IMG/VR virus record: IMGVR_UViG_3300046782_000129
Span: 32,001 to 96,000 of that record
Strand: one strand, 5' to 3'
Origin: a virus
DNA: 64,000 bases
Below are positions 35,832 through 64,000 of the stretch, piece after piece. The notes below the pieces were generated by a model that searched no databases, had not been told where the DNA came from, and worked only from the letters and a program-made list of their open reading frames with translations. Each line of letters begins with the position of its first letter. Within the stretch, counting starts at the first letter, position 1. The translations under genes and the position numbers were made by a program.

Positions 35832-36385
35832 GTGGGTGGTATCATCTGATACCACATGACGGCGGTCTGGATAGTCGTCGGCATTTTTGTTGGCTGGGGA
35901 TTGGCCGGATGGTTGACGGGGCACAAGAATCCGTGGACGTCGTTGTGGCATTGGATGCGTGGACATCCCATCAAGGCGACGACCGTGATCGTGGCCATCA
36001 TACTGGTCACCGGCCAGTTACTGTTCGGGTGGTTCGTACACAAGAAGTCGGAGACCTCAAATGATCCCTGCACTGGGTATGTTGTTGCTGATCGCCGTGC
36101 TGATACAATGGCCGAAGTGGAAACGACAACGCGCCGAAGTTCACATGTCACGCGATTGGATGCGAGAGCACGTGTATCGAGCCGGAATAGAACGGTATCG
36201 TTGGTAAGTCATTAAAAAATAATTGATCGCCGGATTAAAATAATGGGTCGGCCCCACGGATCGCTGGGGGGGAAGAGAGCGATTCAACGAGCACCTTGCA
36301 CCAACAAAACTAATCGTGGGTCAGGCCGGTTACGGTATACTTGTGCTTTGCTGATACCGTTCCGCGTGAAGGAGTCCGCCTGCCG

Positions 36386-39300
36386 ATGGACGATTATCAG
36401 AATCTTGCTGTTGGGGTTGTAGAGGTTCCCCCGTCTCCCGCCCAAACGGGGAAGACTGTTCGTCTGAAGACCGGTCACGGTCAGCGATTCCCCGATCCTC
36501 CGTTCAACGTCACGGCGTGGCCGAAGATCGGCATGCCCAATCCGGACAACGCTGAGATTGCTCGATGCACAGCCGTCGAAGGCGATGACCTGACGCTGGA
36601 GATACGTGGCTATCAGGACACGGTGCCACGAGCCATCCAATCCGGTGACTGGATCGCGGCGACGATCACGGATGAAACGATCATCGAACTGCACCGGCCA
36701 GTCTTTGCTAAGTATCTGGTCCAGCAACCGTACATAGACCTGCCCAACGCGCAAGCTATCGGAGACCTAGAGACCGGCTACCTGAAGGGTGAGACCAGCA
36801 CGGGTATCGTCAGTTCCGTGCAACTGATTGCCACGACGGACTTGGAACTGCCCCACGATGATTCGGTCTACCTGAACGGCGAAGGTGAGTTTGTCGAACC
36901 CCCACCGGGGCCAGATGGTCCTCCGGGGCCTGAAGGTCCGCAGGGAGAACAAGGAGCACAAGGCGTCCAAGGCCCTCAGGGTATTCCGGGACCCACAGGT
37001 CCACAAGGCCCAGTCGGTTCAGAAGGCCCCACCGGGGAGACCGGGGCGGATGGACCTGAAGGTCCGCAGGGGGTGCCCGGAGTGACGGGTCCTCAAGGGT
37101 CCACCGGGCCAGCCGGTCCTCAGGGTTCGCAGGGGGTGCCGGGGGCGGTTGGAGCCACGGGACCTCCCGGAGCTACCGGAGCGACGGGATCGACCGGCCC
37201 AGCCGGTCCTATTGGCCCACAGGGTCCTGTGGGGGCCACGGGGCCGAAGGGGGCGACCGGAGACCAAGGTATCACCGGTCCACAGGGGGAAATGGGGGTT
37301 CCCGGTCCAGAAGGCCCACAGGGGACCACAGGAGCCACCGGGCAGACCGGACCACCGGGACCTCTTGGCCCAGCCGGTCCTACGGGATCGACCGGCCCAG
37401 CGGGTGTCCAAGGGGCGACAGGAGCTACGGGGGTGGCGGGGCCAGTCGGTCCTCAAGGTCCGCAAGGACCCATCGGCACGACCGGGCCAGCCGGTCCACT
37501 CGGTCCCAAGGGAGACAAGGGTGATACGGGAATTCAAGGCGTGCCGGGTCCGCAAGGATCACCGGGTGATACCGGTTCCACGGGTCCCGTAGGACCAGCC
37601 GGTGCCCAAGGAGCCAAGGGGGATCAGGGCGTGCCCGGTGTGCCGGGGCCAGAGGGTCCGGAAGGTCCAGCGGGAGCCGGGTTAGAAATCAAAGGCACGG
37701 TGCCAACAGTTGGGGACTTGCCACCAACCGGGGTGCCCGGAGATGCATGGCTGGCCGCAGATACTGGCCATTTGTGGGTCTGGGACGCAGAGACGAGCAC
37801 GTGGATCGATGCGGGTCAGTTGCAAGGGCCAGCCGGTCCTCAAGGCCCACAAGGTGTGGTCGGTCCTCAAGGCATACCGGGTGCGACAGGTCCTCAAGGG
37901 ACGACCGGTGCCCAAGGCGTTGCTGGTCCTCAAGGTTCGAAGGGCGATGTTGGCGCGACGGGTCCACAAGGGACGCAAGGTATCAAAGGGGATCCCGGAG
38001 TTGCTGGACCCTCAGGTCCTCAAGGACTCGATGGTCCGACAGGTCCGCAAGGCGCACAGGGAGCGAAGGGAGATACTGGTGCGACAGGACCGCAAGGGAC
38101 GAAGGGTGATCCGGGTACGCAGGGCATCCAAGGGACACAAGGCCCAGCGGGAGCTACCGGAGCCGATGGTCCAGCCGGTCCAGCAGGGTCTCAAGGTACG
38201 CAGGGGGTGCAGGGTCCGAAGGGAGACACGGGAGCCACTGGCACTACTGGGCCACAAGGTGATCCCGGACCCATTGGCAGCACTGGTCCGAAAGGTGATC
38301 CGGGTTCACAAGGTCCGATTGGAACCACAGGTCCTCCGGGGCCGCAAGGAATTCAGGGTCCGCTAGGTCCAGCCGGTCCAGATGGTCCGACCGGTCCCAA
38401 AGGAGATACGGGAGCGGCTGGACCACAAGGTTCCCAAGGCATTCAAGGAGCGACGGGAGCTACCGGTTCAACTGGAGCGACAGGTCCCGCAGGACCCACG
38501 GGGCCACAGGGGAATGATGGTCCACAAGGTGTGCAAGGGTTACAAGGATCCAAGGGGGACACCGGAGCCACCGGATCCCAAGGTCCAGCCGGAACTGATG
38601 GCGCACCGGGGGCCAAAGGAGACAAAGGGGATCCGGGTCCAGTTGGTCCAGAAGGTCCAGAGGGGCCACAAGGCCCACCGGGCACGGGTACAGGTGGTGG
38701 AGGCACGGACCTAGAGTACTTAGGCGATTACGTCTCGACCACGTATGACGATGGTGACATCGTGGTGGCGTCGGACGGAATCGCGTACATGTGTGTCAAG
38801 GATGGCGTCACGACGCCGCCTGAACCATGGCCGGGAACAGGCATCATTTCAGCGGTCGGTCCTCCGGGACCCACAGGACCGGTGGGACCACAGGGATTGC
38901 CGGGGCCAACAGGCTCAGCGGGAGCTACAGGAAGCCAAGGACCCGCAGGATCCAAAGGGGATCCGGGGCCACAAGGTGATCCGGGACCCAAGGGAGACAC
39001 AGGACCGACAGGACCACAGGGATCACAAGGTACGCAAGGCACACAGGGTCCGCAAGGATCACAAGGGAGTCAAGGGACGGCAGGTACGCCCGGAGAAAAA
39101 TGGTACTCAGATACGGGTGCGCCAGCCGGGGCCACAGGAATTGTTGGAGACTGGTACCTCGATACGGCGACAGGAGATTTTTACGAGAAGACCGCCACGT
39201 CAGCGTGGACGAATCGCGGCAACCTCAAGGGGCCGCAGGGTGCGGCAGGTTCACCGGGAGCGCAGGGCAATCCCGGCATTACACGTCCATTCAGACTCGG

Positions 39301-39613
39301 CCACACGTGGGGACTGGTGGGTGATGTCTCTGGCCTGACCACGTTGCCGTCGATTTTCATTCCGTTCAACGGGACGCAAGCCGCCACGTTGGTGGGTTTG
39401 CGTATGAAGATCGCCACGGGAACGAGCGTGGGCGTGCAGTTGAAACGCAATGGAGCCAATGTGGGAAGTGTGGTCACGGTGACCACGACCGTAGCGACGA
39501 CCACGCTGAGTCAGGTACTGGCCGCAGACGATGAACTCACCATTGTGTTGTCGTCTCCGGTCGGCACCCCAACGCATTTGACGGCGACGTTGTATATCGA
39601 GCACACACCCTGA
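36386..39613 (+). CDS. Collagen-like tail fibre protein
   Basis: Several hundred residues of G-X-Y repeats interrupted by globular modules. Confidence 0.85.
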
Positions 39614-42494: not shown

Positions 42495-42896
42495 ATGCCT
42501 ATTACGGTGACGCTTCGTGCGTTGTTAGAAGCCCAGCCTGCATTGGTCCGACTGAGCAATGAAAAATTGCCCGTCAAGCTGGCGTATCGTGTGGCGAGAC
42601 TGATGAAGGTGGTGCAAGTCGAGCTAGATGATTTTCACAAGCAACGTATTGTGCTGGTGAAGCAGTACGGAGCCACACGACCGACAACTGAAGAAGAGCG
42701 TGCCATTCATGGCACGGAAATCACTGAAGTGACCCCCGACAGGATGGTGGAGTTTCGGCAAGACGTTGATGATCTGGCGGATGAGAAGGTGACATTGGAG
42801 CGTGAGCCGTTGAAGCTTGAAGACAACTTTCCGGCCATTACGCCAGCCGATTTGATTGCGCTCGGTCCATTGGTGGCCGATGAAGAGGATGTATGA
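42495..42896 (+). CDS. Tail-region protein (DUF1617-like)
   Basis: [12 protein letters not shown]...LVKQYG. Confidence 0.55.
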
Positions 42897-44254
42897 GTTT
42901 TCCTGATCCCGCCACTACGGAATGGGTCCCTATCTGGAATCCGACGAGTCAGGGACCAGTTGGACCGGCTGGACCAACAGGACCAACGGGTTCACAAGGT
43001 ACTCAGGGTATACCGGGGCCAACAGGACCCACAGGTCCTACAGGATCTACAGGCCCACAAGGACCTATTGGAAATACGGGACCGCAAGGACCACAGGGAG
43101 CCACGGGTCCACAAGGCCCACAAGGTGATCCCGGTATCGTTGGCATTCATCACACCACGCATCAGCCGGGGGGCACAGATATTTTGACGCTCACCGGAGG
43201 TTCCCTGCTTTTTGGCCGGGGCAGTAGTGGTGCAGGCGCAATGCAAGAGCTTTCGTTGGGTACTGGATTGGCGATGACCGGCACGGTCTTATCAGCCACG
43301 GCCCAAGGGATGGTGGCGCATCACGCGACCCACGAGCCGGGTGGAACGGACGTTTTAGTGAACTCCGTGTGGTCGAACGTCGCCAACACGTTCACGCAGA
43401 ATCAACTGGTCAACAAGGCTTACCCAGAATGGACACTGCGACACAGTTCTGACGCAACTAGAGGACGACTGCTATTGCTTGCTAGTGGTCAGATGTGGGC
43501 GTCGAGCAACTTGAGTTATAACGGCACGACTTGGCTCCTCGATGATCCAGCACTCAAGGGCCTGTTGTATGGAACGGACGGTGCTGGAAGCTTCTTCATC
43601 TACACATCTACTAGCGGCACGGTAGCGTTGACGAATGTGTTCTCAGTAAGCAGTGGTGGGAATGTTTCGGTAGCTGGCACGCTGACGATGGCTGGCGGGT
43701 TGACCGTGACCGCAGGCGGTGCGTCTATCACGGGCGTCACCACGATCAACTCACTGATTTCCAACGGTGCTGCGCTGTCTCAATTCGCTGGACCACTCTA
43801 CTGCAACTCTTACATCTACAACGCAGGCGTGATGTATCCGGGCAGGATCGACAACGGCGCAGCGCAGACGAATTGGTATCTCGCCGGTCACGGCAGCTAT
43901 GGCATCTATATCAACACCGGGTTGTATGTCGCTGGCGGTATCTGGGTCAACGGTGTCGCAGCAGCCGTGGCAGCTAATCCAAACTCACTTATGCTGCGAG
44001 ACGCGAGTGGGTTCTGCAACTGGGTGTATGGGTATGGGAGCTACGTTAATACGACTGACGATCCCAGTGCTGGAACCATCTCGTATGTCATGGCGAAGTT
44101 CGGGGATAACTACCATCGCTCCGCATCGCAGGCGAAGCTCCGAGAGTTTATCGGTGGATTGACTGGCAATTTGGGATCGACGGTTATTTATAACGGATAC
44201 TATGCATATCTGTCGTTTACCAACGGGATTTTGACGGGTGCGACCCCAGCATGA
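42893..44254 (+). CDS. Collagen-containing tail fibre/receptor-binding protein
   Basis: [14 protein letters not shown]-terminus, G-X-Y run, HHxTHxPGGTD twice. Confidence 0.8.
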
Positions 44255-52022: not shown

Positions 52023-52288
52023 TGGCTTTGAGCATCGGCGTTTCAGTCGGGAGTAAAATTGATATCGGGGGACACCTGTTACACGTCAAGGCGTTGGTGC
52101 ATCCCAATATCGTGGTGGTGACGGTGGATCGGGGTCCTGAAGTTGTCATCAGTGAAGATCAGGCGGTGGACATCCTTCCGGGCGTGAAAGTCCAGTCCGG
52201 ACTGGGTGGCAACCGTCTGGCCTTCCAAGCGGCCAAATCGATTCGTATTTCGCGGGTCGAAGGGGCAGAAAAAGAACGGAGGAAATGA
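52022..52288 (+). CDS. CsrA-like small beta protein
   Basis: RLAFQAAKSIRISR resembles the CsrA C-terminal strands; GGAGG RBS. Confidence 0.4.
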   Translation: MALSIGVSVGSKIDIGGHLLHVKALVHPNIVVVTVDRGPEVVISEDQAVDILPGVKVQSGLGGNRLAFQAAKSIRISRVEGAEKERRK

Positions 52289-52617
52289 CCGTGCAGATCA
52301 GTACCAAAGTGCTGAAGGTGCTCAAGGCTGAGAACATCTCAGCGGAAGAACTCCGGCGCATGCTGAACAAGATGGCGTTAACGTCCATCCGTGGGTGCAA
52401 CCGTCGATACTTCCAGTGGCTGTTCCAGATGAATAGCACCAACACGGTGCTGTCTGACATGCAGCGACTGGACGTGGTGGAGATTGGCCGTGGACAGAAC
52501 CGCATGCTGGAAGAGCACGAGGAATGCGGCGGCGAGGGCTGTCGGACGTGCGGCTGGGTCGGACAGGTATCGAGAGCGGTGCAGGACGCCACGGCAGTGG
52601 CCATGAGTGGTTCTTGA
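52285..52617 (+). CDS. Hypothetical protein with CxGxGCxxC motif
   Basis: GGAGG RBS, ATGA overlap. Confidence 0.55.
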   Translation: MTVQISTKVLKVLKAENISAEELRRMLNKMALTSIRGCNRRYFQWLFQMNSTNTVLSDMQRLDVVEIGRGQNRMLEEHEECGGEGCRTCGWVGQVSRAVQDATAVAMSGS

Positions 52618-58011: not shown

Positions 58012-60393
58012 ATGCGACTCACGATCTGGTCCAAGACCATCCCCGCCAAAGTCCTGCGAAACCTGTCGCCCGTCCTTCGCACCGCAAACGTAAACGCCAC
58101 GGTCGTCGCTGACCATTCGGTGCCTGAGGGCACGACGGTCATTCTCGCACTCGGCACGGAATCCCTCAAGAAGCTGCAAGAGCACAAGGTCCTCGCCAAG
58201 AACCGCACCACCACGTCCTATCGCACGATGCCCCACATGCTGGGCACCACGCCCGTGTTGGTGAGCTACAGTCCGGAGATAGGCGAGATAGACCACGGCT
58301 ACTATATCGATCTGTTGACCGATGTCAGCTTGGCCATGCGCTACTGCCTGACGGGCAAGTGGCATCCCATCTACGGCAAGTATCGGTACGTCAAAGACTT
58401 TTCCGAGTTGTGCCACGCGATTGAGCAACAGCACGCCGACACCGGCCAGCCCGTGGACGTGGCGAAGGACTTGGAAACACTGGGGCTGGATCCCTACGCT
58501 GAACCAGAGCTAGGCTTCCCCGGTGCCTACATCGTCTCCATGCAGGCGTCACACCAGAAGGGCACCGCTGATGTGGTCCGGTTCGCTGATCGGATGCACG
58601 AGAGCCAGCGATTATCTGACCCAGCCTTCAGAGAGCAAGTGGAGTTTCTGTTGCGCTGTCCCTATGTCCGGTTGAAGGGCGCGAACTTCAAATACGATCT
58701 GCACTGGCTGTGGAAGCGTGGCGGCTTTACGTGCAGCACGTTCACCTTCGATACCACCATCGTGGGCAGTTTGCTCGATGAGAATCGTAGCAATGCGCTG
58801 GATGTTCACGTCAAACTCTACGCCAACACGCTGGCCGGGTACTCCGACAAGTTTGATCGTGAAGTGGACAAGAGCCGCATGGACAAGGTACCCCCCGATG
58901 CCCTGCTCCCCTATGCTGGCGGCGATGTGGATGGGGGCCTGCAAGTGGCCGAGGCCATGAAGCAGGAACTCCTGCAAGACAAGCGGCTGACCAGTTTCTA
59001 TGTGAACGTCCTCCACCCCGCCGCCAGAGCCTTTGAATGGGTCGAGCAGGGGGGTGTGGTGATTGACCCCGAAGCCTTCAAAGAACTGAAATCTGATTTG
59101 GAGACGGAGCACGCCAGACTCGTGAAGGAAGCCAGCAGGATCATGGGGGGCCGCATCGTCATCAAGCATGCGTATAACAGCTTGATCGGGATGGGGGCCA
59201 TGAACCTCACCAAAGCGTCCATGCTGGTGGACTTCATGTTCACCACGATGGGTCTCAATCTCAAGCCTAAGATGTGGACCCCGAAGCCCGACAAGGATGG
59301 GATCAAGCGACCATCAACAGCCATGGAACATCTGGAGATGTTTGCGGCCCTCCCAGAGGCCAAAGCCTTCGTGGACATCATCCGGCAAGACTCCAGCGTC
59401 ATGAAGACCTACAACACCTACGTGGTGGGCTTCTTGGAGCACCTGAGGTCGGACCATCGTTTCCACCCATCGTACTGGCTCTTTGTGGGCAACAAAGAAG
59501 AGGGAGAGGGTGGCGCGAAGACTGGACGATTGTCTTGCACTGGACCCGCTTTTCAAACCGTACCCAAGCACACGGCATGGGCACAGAGAATCAGACGATG
59601 CTATCCGGCTCCACCGGGCTACGTGGTGGTCGAGCGAGACTATGGACAGGGTGAACTCCGGGTGGTGGCGTGCATTGCGAACGAGACGAACATGCTCAAC
59701 GTGTTCAAATCGGGCAAGGACATACACGCGGATACGGCAGCACCGTTCGCAGGGTACACCTACGATGCGCTGATGGCGTTGGAGCAGACGGATACCCACA
59801 AATTCGAAGAGACTAGACAGCTTGGGAAGGCGGGCAACTTTGGGCTGGTGTTCGGCATGCGTGAGGATGGCTTCGTGGCCTACGCCAAATCCAATTACGG
59901 CGTGGAGCTAACGTGGGAGGATGCCCACACCTTTCGCAACACGTTCTTTAAGAAATATCCCCGCCTAGAGGTGTATCATAGGTCCGCGATTGAGTTTGCG
60001 AAGCAGTACAAACACGTGAGAACGCCACTCGGCAGAATCCGGCACCTCCCGTTGATCACGTCGCCCAATCGTGAGGTGGCCGCGAAGGCGGAGCGACAGG
60101 CCATCAACAGCCCGGTTCAAGGTACCCTCACGGACATGACCCTCTGGACCATTGCATTGGAGCACAAGTGGGGACTCGCCAAGATCGCGCCTTGTTTTGG
60201 AGCCTGCCACGACTCCATTCTGAATTATGTCCCCGAGGATCAAGTGGACAGCATCGTGAATCAGCAACTCGATCAGATGGAATCCCTGCCGTTCCACGAG
60301 GTTGGCTGGTCCCCGCAAGTGAAGTTCGTGGCCGAGGCCAAGGTGGGAAAAAATTGGGGCGAGGTCAAGAAGTTTCACAGGAAAGCCTCATGA
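58012..60393 (+). CDS. polA: Family A DNA polymerase with 3'-5' exonuclease
   Basis: DLET, NFKYD, YAGGD exonuclease motifs; TGRLS, DYGQGELR, KAGNFGLVFG, RQAINSPVQG, HDSI. Confidence 0.93.
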   Translation: MRLTIWSKTIPAKVLRNLSPVLRTANVNATVVADHSVPEGTTVILALGTESLKKLQEHKVLAKNRTTTSYRTMPHMLGTTPVLVSYSPEIGEIDHGYYIDLLTDVSLAMRYCLTGKWHPIYGKYRYVKDFSELCHAIEQQHADTGQPVDVAKDLETLGLDPYAEPELGFPGAYIVSMQASHQKGTADVVRFADRMHESQRLSDPAFREQVEFLLRCPYVRLKGANFKYDLHWLWKRGGFTCSTFTFDTTIVGSLLDENRSNALDVHVKLYANTLAGYSDKFDREVDKSRMDKVPPDALLPYAGGDVDGGLQVAEAMKQELLQDKRLTSFYVNVLHPAARAFEWVEQGGVVIDPEAFKELKSDLETEHARLVKEASRIMGGRIVIKHAYNSLIGMGAMNLTKASMLVDFMFTTMGLNLKPKMWTPKPDKDGIKRPSTAMEHLEMFAALPEAKAFVDIIRQDSSVMKTYNTYVVGFLEHLRSDHRFHPSYWLFVGNKEEGEGGAKTGRLSCTGPAFQTVPKHTAWAQRIRRCYPAPPGYVVVERDYGQGELRVVACIANETNMLNVFKSGKDIHADTAAPFAGYTYDALMALEQTDTHKFEETRQLGKAGNFGLVFGMREDGFVAYAKSNYGVELTWEDAHTFRNTFFKKYPRLEVYHRSAIEFAKQYKHVRTPLGRIRHLPLITSPNREVAAKAERQAINSPVQGTLTDMTLWTIALEHKWGLAKIAPCFGACHDSILNYVPEDQVDSIVNQQLDQMESLPFHEVGWSPQVKFVAEAKVGKNWGEVKKFHRKAS

Positions 60394-60665
60394 CCCCCAG
60401 TGGTGAGAGCAATATCCAATTCGTCCCCGAGCATCAGTGTCCTGCCTGCAAACGGACCATGGATGTGGTGATGATCTTAGAAGACGATGAACCGTATCTC
60501 CCCGAGGCAGGCGACATCACCATCTGTGGGTTCTGCCTGACCGTGAACGTCTTCAAAGAGGATGGCCAGCTACGGTTTGCCACCAGTGAAGAGTGCGAGA
60601 AGATTCCTCATTGGGTAAGAGTCAGGATGGCCGAGGAACAGAAGAGACGACAGCGGGTGTTCTGA
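60390..60665 (+). CDS. Small Zn-ribbon protein
   Basis: CPAC...CGFC; ATGA overlap. Confidence 0.55.
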   Translation: MTPSGESNIQFVPEHQCPACKRTMDVVMILEDDEPYLPEAGDITICGFCLTVNVFKEDGQLRFATSEECEKIPHWVRVRMAEEQKRRQRVF

Positions 60666-60673
60666 TCGCACAG

Positions 60674-60703
60674 TTGACAAATCGTGGCGGCGCGTGTTAG
60701 GAT
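60674..60703 (+). promoter_or_regulatory. sigma70-type promoter heading the Tas/array locus
   Basis: TTGACA-N18-TAGGAT with TG extension. Confidence 0.65.
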
Positions 60704-60733
60704 CCACCCAGTCAATGGAGTGTTGTAGATCCC

Positions 60734-60907
60734 ATGTGGAGAATTCGCTCACTCACCGAGACGGATAACAAAGGCCAACCCAAGTACTGGTCCACCGATG
60801 TGGGCTGGACGTGGAAGACCTTTGCTGACACGTTCACACAGGAAGAAAAAGATGCCGTGATGCTGCCGAAGCACGCGGTCTGGGAAGCAATCACAGAGCA
60901 GGAGTAA
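60734..60907 (+). CDS. Small Trp-rich hypothetical protein (57 aa; not in ORF track)
   Basis: MWRIRSLTETDNKGQPKYWSTDVGW...; ends at the RBS of the next gene. Confidence 0.5.
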   Translation: MWRIRSLTETDNKGQPKYWSTDVGWTWKTFADTFTQEEKDAVMLPKHAVWEAITEQE

Positions 60908-60910
60908 CCA

Positions 60911-61783
60911 ATGGCAGAAGAGAATTTCGATGATCAGCAGTTAGACCCCATCAAGCGGCTCAACAGGGACCTGAAGAAGGCGGCGGCGACCCTCTCGGCT
61001 AATGAAGCGAGATTCCTCGTGGATGCATATTATCAGATGCAAAGAGACCGCATCCGAGCCGCGCATCAGGCGAGAACGTTGGAGGAGGCAGGAGAGCCGA
61101 ATCAGATTCTCGGTTGGTTGTTCGACAACACCGAAACCCTCGAAAGAAACATCAAATCTGCCTTAGGCACTTACAGCAAGCATCACCCAGTCGGCAAGTG
61201 GGCGGAGTCCATCGTGGGCATCGGCCCCGTCATCAGCGCAGGTCTCTTGGCCCACATCGATATCCAGAAGGCCCCTACCGTGGGCCATATCTGGAGGTTT
61301 GCTGGTCTCGATCCTACCGTCGTGTGGGGCGAGGGCAAGAAGAGACCTTGGAACGGTGCTCTCAAAAGACTCTGCTGGATCATCGGAGAGAGTTTCACGA
61401 AGCAACAGAGCCACGAAGAGGACACCTACGGCCAGTTTTACGTGGCCCGCAAGGCCCAAGAAGAGACCAAGAACGCCAACCATGACTTCGCAGACCAAGC
61501 GAAGAAGTCTCTCTCCACCAAGAACTGGAAGAAGGACACTCAGACCAAAGCGGCCTATGAACAGGGGATGTTGCCGCAGGCCCGCATCCATCTAAGAGCA
61601 CAGCGATACGCCGTGAAGCTCTTCCTTAGCCACTGGCACGAGGCCGCATTCTTCAACCACTATGGTGTCCTCCCTCCAAAACCCTACGTGATCCAACACA
61701 TGGGCCACGCACACTTCATTCAGCCCCCAAACATGCACTTGATTGCCGGATGGGCGGAGGCCAGAGCCAAGGCAGGCATCTAA
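60911..61783 (+). CDS. tasA: TasA-like Nop-domain RNA-guided DNA-binding protein (IS110/Nop5-related, no nuclease domain)
   Basis: Coiled coil RFLVDxYYxMQxxRI; GIGPVISAGLL, IWRFAGLDP, PWNxxLK, HLRAQRYAVKLFL; no DEDD RuvC or HNH; upstream of the 36-nt array. Confidence 0.8.
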   Translation: MAEENFDDQQLDPIKRLNRDLKKAAATLSANEARFLVDAYYQMQRDRIRAAHQARTLEEAGEPNQILGWLFDNTETLERNIKSALGTYSKHHPVGKWAESIVGIGPVISAGLLAHIDIQKAPTVGHIWRFAGLDPTVVWGEGKKRPWNGALKRLCWIIGESFTKQQSHEEDTYGQFYVARKAQEETKNANHDFADQAKKSLSTKNWKKDTQTKAAYEQGMLPQARIHLRAQRYAVKLFLSHWHEAAFFNHYGVLPPKPYVIQHMGHAHFIQPPNMHLIAGWAEARAKAGI

Positions 61784-62088
61784 TGGCTCAGCAGTGGGAT
61801 GAGTTTGAAGGCCGGTTCATCGAGATAGAGGAAAACATCAAGCCTTCATTAGCGGTAAGGCGTGGGGCATCGGTGCCCCCGCCCCAAGCAAGCACAAGCA
61901 AGCACAAGCAAGCATTCCCCAAGCAAGCACAAGCAAGCACAAGCAAGCATCCCTCACCGGGCACTCCAGAGGGCAGAATGAAGGGTGGCAAGGCCAGATT
62001 GAGGGATGATCCGAAACGCCGTAGAGAGATTGCCCTCAGAGCCGCAAAAGTGCGTTGGAACAGAGGTCATGACACCAAGGGGTCGTAA
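61783..62088 (+). CDS. Small basic protein with GGKAR...RRxEIAxxAAxxRW motif
   Basis: TAATG coupling to tasA; contains the iteron cluster in frame. Confidence 0.55.
   Translation: MAQQWDEFEGRFIEIEENIKPSLAVRRGASVPPPQASTSKHKQAFPKQAQASTSKHPSPGTPEGRMKGGKARLRDDPKRRREIALRAAKVRWNRGHDTKGS
61884..61950 (+). repeat. Iteron-like cluster: (CAAGCAAGCA)x3 - 5 bp - (CAAGCAAGCA)x3
   Basis: Read directly; inverted counterpart at 20236-20292. Confidence 0.9.
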
Positions 62089-62380
62089 ATTGTTGGCGGC
62101 GGCTCTGGAAGCCAAGAAGATGGTCATAGGCAGGGGCCACGTTCTGGGTAAGTGGAAGTCACAGGTGGGTGGGGATATGCACCCATCGAAGGCGCAGATT
62201 CTTCACGTGCAGTGTGTGCAGTGCCAAGCGTGGCTCAATCTTGAACTAATGGTGGACGAGACCATCCACGTGGGTGGAGCAGCCTACAGACGGCCCTGCC
62301 AAGGTATCATCAGAAGCAGGAAGCGGAAAGCCGCCAAGCAACAACCGGTGAATGAAGAGCGTGCCGTGCAAGGAGAGTGA
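62069..62380 (+). CDS. Small putative Zn-binding protein
   Basis: GHVLGKW...CVQC...GGAAYRRPC; last codons overlap the first array repeats. Confidence 0.55.
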   Translation: MTPRGRKLLAAALEAKKMVIGRGHVLGKWKSQVGGDMHPSKAQILHVQCVQCQAWLNLELMVDETIHVGGAAYRRPCQGIIRSRKRKAAKQQPVNEERAVQGE

Positions 62381-64000
62381 GCCGCTAAGGTGGGAGAGTG
62401 CCGTGTGCTCAGAGCGATCCGGGTAGCACGAGCGCACCGATGTTGGAGAGTGAGTCATCATCAATGAGGCGCACCGTATCTGCTGAACGAGTCGTGACAT
62501 GTGAGGGTGCCAAGGTAACGAAACGAGTCTGCACAAGTGAGCGTACCGAGTACAGTGAACGAGTCTGAGGCGAGGAAGGGTGCCGTGAACCGTGAACGAG
62601 TCTAGGTCAGAGAGCGCACCGAGATGTTTGAACGAATCGTTCCAACGGAGCGTGCCGTCCATTGCGAATGAACCGAAGCCTCCTGCCCGGAGGCCGCAGA
62701 GCGTACCTGAAGGGCGTTGAGTGAGCCGCTGAACTACGAGCGCACCGTAGCAGTTGATCGAGTCGTGCTTCATGAGCGTACCGAAAAGCTTGGAACGAGT
62801 CATGTTGAGCGAGAGGACCGTTAGCCATGATCGAGTCGAGTTGAACGAGCGCACCATACTTGGTGAACGAGTCGTGTGGCCCCGAGGGCACCGTGATTGT
62901 TGAACGAGTCGAGAGACGCGAGAGCACCAGAATAACTGAACGAGTCTCTTTCGGAGAGCGTGCCGCAGTATCGGAACGAACCACATGCGACGACCGCACC
63001 GAATCACACGAGTGAGTCGTTGAGTGCGAGTGGACCGTTGTTAACGAACGAGTCGTCTAGTAAGAGCGCACCAAAATACAGGATCGAGTCGAGCAGTAAG
63101 AGCGTACCGTGGCTTAGGAACGAGTCGTAAGGAGAGACATCACGAAGCATCTGAACGAGTCGGGGCAATTGAAAGTTACGTACGGATCGAACGAGTCGTG
63201 AATGGTTAGCGTACCGAAGCATCTGAACGAGTCCTGACAGCAGTGGGTGCCGTAATGACAGAACGAGTCGTATAGGGTGAGAGTACCATCAGACGAAGAA
63301 CGAGTCGTGAACGAACGAGCGCACCGTGGGAGTTGAACGAGTTGTGTCAAGCGAGGGTGCCGATCTTCTTGAACGAGTCGTGTTGACCGAGCGTGCCGTG
63401 GTTTGAGAACGAGTCTCCTATGTAGAGCGTACCGAGCCTGTTGAACGAGTCGGAATTGCGGAGAGTGCCGAGTTGTTTGAACGAGCCGCACCGATTGAGG
63501 GCACCTTAGACGTGGATCGAGTCGGGCAAAGAGAGCGTGCCGTGATAGAGGAACGAACCAAGCGTACTTGAGCGCACCGTGATCTAGGAGTGAGTCGAGC
63601 CACTTGAGTTACCCGCGAGGTTCGAACGAACCGCAAATATTGAGAAGGCCGGGACATGGGAGTGAGCCGAGACAGCCGACCAGTCACGAGATGAAGTAGC
63701 GAGTCGCTGACATACGAGGGTGCCGCGCAAGGTGAACGAGTTGGAAGCTTCAGAGGGCACCGAGACGGACGAACGAGTCGAGCCACGTGAGTGTACCCTG
63801 AGGTTCGAACGAGTCGAGACTACTGCGAGTACCGAGCTAACGGAACGAGCCATGCGAGACGAGCCGGGGATCATGATCCCACGTTGGCCATGAGCGAGTC
63901 GTGCAAGTGAGGGCATCGTCCTAGAAGAACGAGTCGTGACAGTCGAGCGCACCACCCGCAAAGAACGAGTCGAGATTTTTGAGCGTACCAAACTCATGGA
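62357..64000 (+). ncRNA. TIGR-like dual-repeat guide-RNA array (at least 44 units, 36-nt period; runs off the window)
   Basis: Alternating GAACGAGTC-type and GAGCGYRCC-type 9-mers separated by ~9-nt variable spacers; e.g. first repeat at 62485, 62521, 62557, 62594, 62630 ... 63927, 63963. Confidence 0.9.

Follow-up and report, generated by a model that had tools for sequence, protein, structure and literature searches.

Why does a soil phage carry, 3' of a gene for a small protein labelled a transposase by family databases, some 2 kb of short repeats that alternate with unlike spacers? The question is raised by IMG/VR virus record IMGVR_UViG_3300046782_000129, of whose 117,534 bp we analysed bases 32,001–96,000 (64,000 nt; hereafter the window, whose coordinates are used unless a position is marked as genome). 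Our answer is that the locus is very probably a dual-repeat TIGR-TasA system of a tailed phage, with a complex that most likely binds DNA and blocks transcription or another DNA transaction. TIGR-Tas systems were described in 2025 (Faure et al., Science, PMC12045711), and several papers of 2026 have extended that description. The locus has two principal parts:

60911–61783, + strand: tasA, encoding a 290-aa Tas protein predicted to be nuclease-less
62357–64000, + strand, continuing to window-equivalent 64435 (genome 96,435): dual-repeat TIGR array, with ~45 of its ~57 units in the window

A dual-repeat array with unique spacers

The array consists of two alternating 9-nt repeat types, GAACGAGTC (first type) and GAGNGYRCC (second type), spaced at half-periods of 18 nt to form a 36-nt unit. 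Chaining of repeats over the genome gave 115 half-units, the first two of which match at only four or five of nine positions and were dropped. The 113 kept half-units (57 second-type and 56 first-type) correspond to ~57 units over 2.1 kb. Most are exactly 18 nt long (n = 91), with 16 of 19 nt, two of 17 nt, one of 20 nt and three irregular ones of 26, 27 and 30 nt. A preliminary description, made from the letters of the window, had reported a ~36-nt dual-repeat array running from 62357 to the window end with 44 copies of the first repeat and nearly all spacers unique. The start and the layout are real, 44 first-type repeats lie wholly inside the window (a 45th is cut by its end) and all 91 nine-nt spacers are distinct, but the array continues for 435 nt past the window. 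Twelve of the 44 first-type repeats differ from the consensus at two or three positions.

Both repeats are enriched over shuffled sequence. Allowing one mismatch, GAACGAGTC has 52 matches on the two strands of the window (mean 21.3 and maximum 36 in 100 shuffles), 32 of them on the + strand between 62485 and 63971, including 21 exact copies. GAGNGYRCC has 39 matches (shuffle mean 12.8, maximum 22), 30 of which fall on the + strand between 62357 and 63989. Across the whole genome, every one of the 28 exact + strand copies of GAACGAGTC and of the nine exact copies of GAGCGCACC is located inside the array.

The two repeat types share their ends: each begins with GA and closes with YC and then G, the latter present in most clean half-units (33 of 40 and 35 of 43). 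Because the base after the repeat is mostly a constant G, the repeats are effectively 10 nt long and the variable part is 8+8 nt. Across the clade, 96–97% of 928 guides have A or G as their first spacer base. Of the boundaries initially proposed, (T)GA...CC/TC(G), the GA start, the YC end and the G that follows it stood up, while no conserved T precedes the repeat.

A Tas protein of the nuclease-less class

TasA comprises an N-terminal helical hairpin (the coiled-coil region), a Nop-type RNA-binding domain with GIGPVISAGLLAHI at residues 103–116 and a C-terminal loop carrying Y259 and H266. Its one Pfam match at E ≤ 0.1 is PF02371 (22.3 bits against a cut-off of 21.3), covering residues 99–138 and the GIGP/AGL stretch; at E-values up to 1, Pfam returned no DEDD or HNH family and no PF01548. 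The protein also matches a PHROG family labelled transposase. Against the Protein Data Bank, phmmer found TasR (9mty_A, E = 5.9e-15) and TasH (21kl_A and seven further entries, E = 2.3e-7).

The predicted structure points the same way. An AlphaFold2 model from 31 sequences (mean pLDDT 90.9, pTM 0.87) has a long helical hairpin (helices at residues 30–59 and 65–90) that aligns with Tas structures. In Foldseek, TasH and TasR fill the ten best rows (E = 7e-8 to 2e-6), and the IS110-family recombinases ISCro4 and IS621 come next; in this search 9mty bears the title ‘TIGR-TasR in complex with tigRNA and target DNA’. VIA-align gave Z = 20.1 to TasH over 224 residues, Z = 18.9 to TasR over 193 and Z = 13.2 to ISCro4, where the match spans only ISCro4 residues 125–318; all other listed rows have Z < 10 and cover the helical hairpin only. 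The alignments begin at TasR residues 112–148 and TasH residues 66–123, past the nuclease domains of both proteins. Since the matches start after those domains and no DEDD or HNH family is found, the protein is, on sequence and modelled fold, of the nuclease-less class, TasA, as first suspected.

The preliminary description had called the RNA-binding domain one shared by IS110 transposases and Nop5/Nop56–58. IS110-family structures were recovered along with those of Tas proteins, whereas Nop5, Nop56/58 and Prp31 are not among the listed fold matches, which consist of Tas proteins, IS110-family proteins and generic helical chains; the Nop label therefore rests on published Tas structures.

In the phmmer alignment, Y259 and H266 lie opposite Y289 and H296 of SpTasH, the catalytic residues for cleavage and maturation of pre-tigRNA (PMC13421893). 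Such a Tyr/His pair marks dual-repeat systems (Xu et al., preprint of September 2026, 10.64898/2026.09.09.750476). Among 31 aligned relatives, H266 is invariant and Y259 is present in at least 90%; at none of the 16 invariant columns of this 31-sequence alignment does TasA deviate.

Relatives and the two repeat roles

TasA homologues are numerous, with 2,929 cluster representatives at E ≤ 0.001 and 1,352 at E ≤ 1e-30. In a pattern search of IMG/VR, 532 of 537 matching stretches encoded TasA relatives. We kept 80 IMG/VR loci for comparison: 36-nt periodic k-mers occur in 75 of the 80, and a stricter parser resolved arrays in 66 of those loci. The array described here is of unremarkable length within its own clade, given that L059 has ~113 units and L007 has ~64; L024 has ~52.

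Repeat ends were compared in 57 arrays, with near-duplicates kept in. In 54 of them the base 3' of the repeat is the same for both types (G/G in 31, A/A in 23, discordant in 3). This agreement in the box-C-like base fits the co-variation that a symmetric dimer would be expected to impose, and repeat co-variation of this kind has been described (PMC12045711). In 52 of the 57 arrays, conservation is higher in the first repeat type than in the second, and one form of the first type, GAGCGAGCC, is common to 42 of 51 distinct arrays. Of 54 chains, 32 open with the second type and 38 finish with the first; the array of L061 closes with a truncated GAACGA and then a hairpin. From its better conservation, its tendency to end arrays and the truncated copy in L061, we infer that GAACGAGTC is the edge repeat and GAGNGYRCC the loop repeat.

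A TasA-like match was found in one of 50,697 records of isolated phages (25% identity), and bacterial genomes contain relatives at up to 59% identity; 16 of 59 bacterial relative loci bear names that we take to be those of Acidobacteriota. Many TasA relatives (for example, P0003, P0006 and P0014) are 50–400 residues longer and match in two stretches with a break near residues 142–143, which suggests, from the alignments, a common insertion point in the TasA loop after GLDPTVVWG.

Predicted mode of action

tasA and the array lie on one strand, between a promoter-like site and a hairpin with a T-run. By analogy with the family, the array would be transcribed, probably together with tasA. A TasA dimer would bind each unit through the GA...YC(G) ends common to both repeats, and the conserved Tyr259/His266 loop would cut within the edge repeat GAACGAGTC, releasing 36-nt tigRNAs. 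In the published Tas mechanism, each of the two spacers, A and B, pairs with a different DNA strand (PMC12045711). The two 8–9-nt spacers of each tigRNA would likewise pair with opposite strands of a single 16–18-bp site, one strand of which would read spacer A and then the reverse complement of spacer B. Because TasA has no nuclease, the TasA–tigRNA complex would block rather than cut, most likely by sitting on the DNA and obstructing transcription or another DNA transaction.

The experimental guide to function is MbTasA: it binds its target DNA, holds reporter transcription down reversibly in Escherichia coli and also represses an E. coli gene (10.64898/2026.09.09.750476). The preliminary description had held the role of TasA to be unsettled, a position that the repression of E. 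coli reporters by MbTasA overtakes in part.

Target searches and spacer composition

Candidate targets were built by joining spacer A to the reverse complement of spacer B, in that order, with the opposite order as a control. This order was chosen because it alone yields the published cleavage position and overhangs: in the published reaction, the cut lies on the 5' side of the nucleotide that pairs with spacer base five and leaves 8-nt 3' overhangs (PMC12045711).

In the phage's own genome with the array masked, 34 guides (first repeat as edge) and 37 guides (the other register) matched at best with two of 18 positions mismatched; there was one such match per register, both in the control order, and the best match in the inferred order had three mismatches. 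With the array itself as target, there was no 16-mer match at two mismatches or fewer. Guides of 57 arrays (765 unique ones in one register, 798 in the other) were then compared with 0.93 Mb of masked related loci. At two mismatches, the predicted geometry gave 49 matches against 45, 33 and 36 for the control geometries; at one mismatch, it gave two against zero, one and one. The predicted geometry is thus not enriched in matches. Against four whole phage genomes (G000–G003, 424 kb), 116 and 124 guides gave no match at one mismatch or fewer and 3/2/3/2 matches at two.

Exact scans of IMG/VR covered three of the ~57 guides. The merged pattern of a duplicated guide (see below) hit three mutually unrelated loci, and the first example guide of the preliminary description hit four loci from three unrelated sequences (two being copies of one phage), both at chance level; the second example guide hit no locus. 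A 5-mer search in 765 predicted targets found no clear motif. These null results agree with the remark in a recent preprint that short spacers produce many false matches, natural targets being mostly undetermined (10.64898/2026.09.09.750476). The earlier proposal that the guides direct binding, rather than cutting, to DNA of competing phages, mobile genetic elements or the host may hold, and none of the searches returned a target above chance.

Spacer GC content is 43.1% (728 nt) compared to 57.2% for the genome, 14 points lower. Spacers are also below their flanks in 47 of 48 related arrays (L007–L086; means of 51.8% and 62.2%, a difference of 10–14 points when the present array is counted in), while still tracking flank GC (r = 0.58). 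Spacer GC or AT composition goes unmentioned in the preprint (10.64898/2026.09.09.750476), and where one further tigRNA paper speaks of AT-rich sequence it does so on another subject. Given that the spacers are AT-rich relative to the phage and that no guide matches its own genome or the other phage genomes tested, we tentatively raise the idea, which we consider rather doubtful, that the ~57 guides are directed against control regions, rich in AT and easy to melt, in the host's own chromosome or in resident prophages. TasA would then act as a multiplexed silencer during host takeover.

Phage genome and setting of the locus

The 117,534-bp record has direct terminal repeats and an estimated completeness of 100%, and is a complete, terminally redundant soil phage genome. 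It belongs to a tailed phage without close cultured relatives, as judged from its portal and tail-fibre genes and from a DNA polymerase at most 49% identical to those of isolated phages (best matches in Stenotrophomonas siphophages). The following features surround tasA and the array:

58012–60393: family A DNA polymerase, 5' of the tasA locus
60674–60703, + strand: sigma-70-like promoter candidate (TTGACA, 18 nt, TAGGAT, with TG before the second hexamer)
60734–60907, + strand: orf57, small gene directly 5' of tasA
61783–62088, + strand: orf101, open frame of doubtful coding status
62069–62380, + strand: orf103, open frame
Genome ~96,488–96,515: GC-rich hairpin with a T-run, 3' of the array

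Upstream lie tail-fibre genes, a kinase-like gene and then the polymerase, and the first large gene 3' of the array matches a portal family (phrog_12, E = 2.2e-22), so that tasA and the array sit at the junction of the replication and structural modules. The order polymerase, orf57, tasA, array, hairpin and portal is kept in two sister phages, L053 (from a 118.9-kb contig) and G001 (a 111.9-kb record covering 41% of the phage genome at 71% identity). Their arrays are of similar length and in the same place and carry different guides: no collinear guides are shared with these sisters, and blastn matches are short and repeat-driven only.

The promoter candidate, a consensus match at 10 of 12 positions, is the only + strand site in the 6-kb locus and possibly marks the start of a tasA–array transcript. 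The preliminary description had put tasA under a sigma70 promoter; the match is there, but such sites are commonplace (four found at the locus compared to 2.0 expected). At the other end, an 8-bp GC-rich hairpin followed by TTTT was read ~50 nt after the last good repeat (fold z only −1.68 against shuffles).

orf57 occurs at the same place in four of the 80 related loci (L075, L049, L051 and L053; 53–62% identity by tblastn) and matches no Pfam or PHROG family. Between the tasA stop codon and the first repeat are 573 nt, in keeping with the ~570 bp reported initially. Neither of the frames in this interval has a Pfam or PHROG match or a homologue in the 80 loci, and Atlas scores for orf103 are below 0.9. 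The array start overlaps the last 24 nt of orf103, whose TGA stop codon (62378–62380) falls inside the second array repeat, the edge-type GAGTGAGCC (62375–62383).

Inside orf101, a 35-nt CAAGCAAGCA-rich unit stands in two exact tandem copies (61882–61950). Repeats of the CAAGCAAGCA type recur at genome 2521–2575 (+ strand) and 52237–52292 (− strand) with 96% identity, contig depth over the unit in other samples is 3–4 times that of the surroundings, and a variant with a 5-nt deletion was seen. The excess depth and the three genome sites fit a dispersed multi-copy repeat.

Elsewhere, a small frame between the polymerase and the promoter-like site (60390–60665) contains two CxxC pairs (CPACK and CGFC) and may encode a zinc ribbon, Pfam matches being sub-threshold only. 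Large collagen-like repeat tail-fibre proteins are encoded at 36341–39613 and 42893–44254; they match many PHROG tail-fibre families, each in 7–11 stretches. An Rfam search of the locus (E up to 1) found no match, and no tRNA genes were found in the window.

Array irregularities and variation among samples

The three irregular half-units fall in two stretches:

62666–62737, + strand: one spacer lengthened to 24 nt, with the hairpin GCCTCC-TGCCC-GGAGGC
63843–63891, + strand: a degenerate loop repeat and the palindrome GGGATCATGATCCC

Two other units, 63588–63623 and 63771–63806, carry near-identical spacer pairs (GAGCCACTT/GCGAGGTTC and GAGCCACGT/CTGAGGTTC) and are probably copies of one duplicated guide that have since diverged at three to four positions. 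Similar 8-nt spacer pairs number 36 in all (shuffle mean 21.2, maximum 35).

Several soil and rhizosphere samples contain this same array. Four further DNA runs, drawn from four other studies, yielded short contigs over tasA and the array; 40 of 45 have ≥99% identity, and stretches of the locus are letter-for-letter the same in these four samples. One contig, from run X5 (depth 3.1), differs by the absence of whole units:

62793–62864, + strand: two whole units (72 nt) missing from the X5 variant

This contig skips exactly these 72 nt, with a 9-nt overlap at the junction that corresponds to an edge repeat, and its loose end implies one further absent unit and three point differences in the next; the evidence is that of a single low-depth contig. 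Recombination between edge repeats, with units lost or gained, could explain such a variant.

Weighing the alternatives

Several observations weigh against a dual-repeat TIGR-TasA system that blocks DNA transactions. The target searches gave chance-level matches only. The 573 nt and two unexplained frames, orf101 and orf103, that part tasA from the array are an arrangement from which most relatives differ. No RNA dataset was among those listed as containing this stretch; transcription and processing of the array are predicted by analogy, as is function, and the model for the latter, MbTasA, comes from a different organism. A terminator scan did not report the hairpin after the array and listed a weaker site ~100 nt further on. 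Finally, 22 of the 113 half-units depart from 18 nt in length, and several loop repeats agree with the consensus at just four or five of nine positions; with about a quarter of its half-units degenerate or irregular, the array may be non-functional in part.

Of the other explanations, the one that survives best keeps the TIGR-TasA identity and gives the system a natural job other than transcriptional silencing: blocking replication or packaging of a rival, bending DNA or recruiting a separate effector. Replication blocking and DNA bending are listed as open possibilities for TasA (PMC12045711), the locus adjoins DNA polymerase and portal genes, and the two unexplained frames could be read as partners. 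However, the sole experimental TasA result is reversible transcriptional repression, the absence of orf101 and orf103 from the 80 related loci argues against conserved partners, and the five small frames around tasA include no ParB-like or enzyme family (Pfam, PHROG). We regard such a job as decidedly unlikely.

It is much less probable still that the array is a decaying relic no longer in use. Decay would account for the many degenerate loop repeats, the two irregular stretches and the 19 half-units with small changes in length, but not for an intact tasA with every invariant column kept, for 21 exact edge repeats in the window and 91 nine-nt spacers that are all distinct, for array pieces identical in four other samples or for sister phages whose arrays, similarly long and in the same position, carry guides of their own.

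It is scarcely credible that the periodic DNA is instead CRISPR, the gene of a translated repeat protein or an IS110 element plus bridge RNA. The 36-nt period does equal 12 codons, with minus-strand frames of 122 to 253 aa across the array, and Pfam and PHROGs do label the protein an IS110-type transposase. Against translation, half-units of 17, 19 and 20 nt (19 of 113) would throw any frame out of register, no plus-strand frame inside the array exceeds 57 aa and the two minus-strand frames that were checked have no PHROG match. Repeats of 9–10 nt in two kinds with spacers of 8–9 nt are unlike CRISPR, in which a single repeat of 25–36 nt alternates with spacers of similar size. The missing PF01548, an alignment that starts at residue 125 of IS110-family structures and 57 units in place of a single bridge RNA speak against IS110.

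Comparison with known systems

The published dual-repeat 36-nt layout, together with the sequence and fold matches to TasR and TasH, bears out the TIGR-TasA identity proposed in the preliminary description. Likeness to FpTasA and MbTasA was judged on published descriptions. On that basis, the locus resembles dual-repeat TIGR-TasA systems such as that of Flavonifractor plautii (FpTasA): a solo Nop-domain protein with a coiled-coil region and a Tyr/His processing loop, two alternating short repeats with ~9-nt spacers in a 36-nt unit, an array 3' of tas on the same strand and then a hairpin terminator (only a candidate here), all borne by a phage. It differs in the two frames between tasA and the array and in its ~57 units, compared to ‘most often 5 to 15’ (PMC12045711); dual-repeat arrays average ~16 units (65,635 tigRNAs in 4,126 arrays; 10.64898/2026.09.09.750476).

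TasH (Salicola phage CGphi29; 9w03, 21kl) and TasR (Thermoproteota archaeon; 9mty) share the coiled-coil and Nop fold and the 36-nt dual-repeat guide layout, and SpTasH has the same spacing of the catalytic Tyr and His. The effective 8+8-nt variable part equals the 16 nt reported for SpTIGR. Unlike TasH and TasR, to which it is 19–28% identical, TasA lacks an HNH or RuvC domain and would not be expected to cleave DNA, and the box-C-like end is YC+G here compared to the CCA described for TasR. The IS110-family proteins IS621 and ISCro4 have a related RNA-binding domain (PF02371), but this locus has no DEDD RuvC-like domain and carries a guide array where IS110 elements have a single bridge RNA.

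The locus is of an already known kind, and a published catalogue of 20,096 tas loci may already include it. Its value is as material, namely a complete 117.5-kb genome with an intact TasA and a long array, when most TIGR-Tas loci are on fragments and natural targets are not yet determinable (10.64898/2026.09.09.750476). The recurring array and its whole-unit deletion variant show directly, on a small scale, how arrays of this type change, which the literature treats as an open question. The AT bias of spacers across the clade is a testable clue to the targets, or to a melting constraint on PAM-less binding, and a complete genome whose array recurs across samples might offer a workable starting point for identifying natural TasA targets for the first time.

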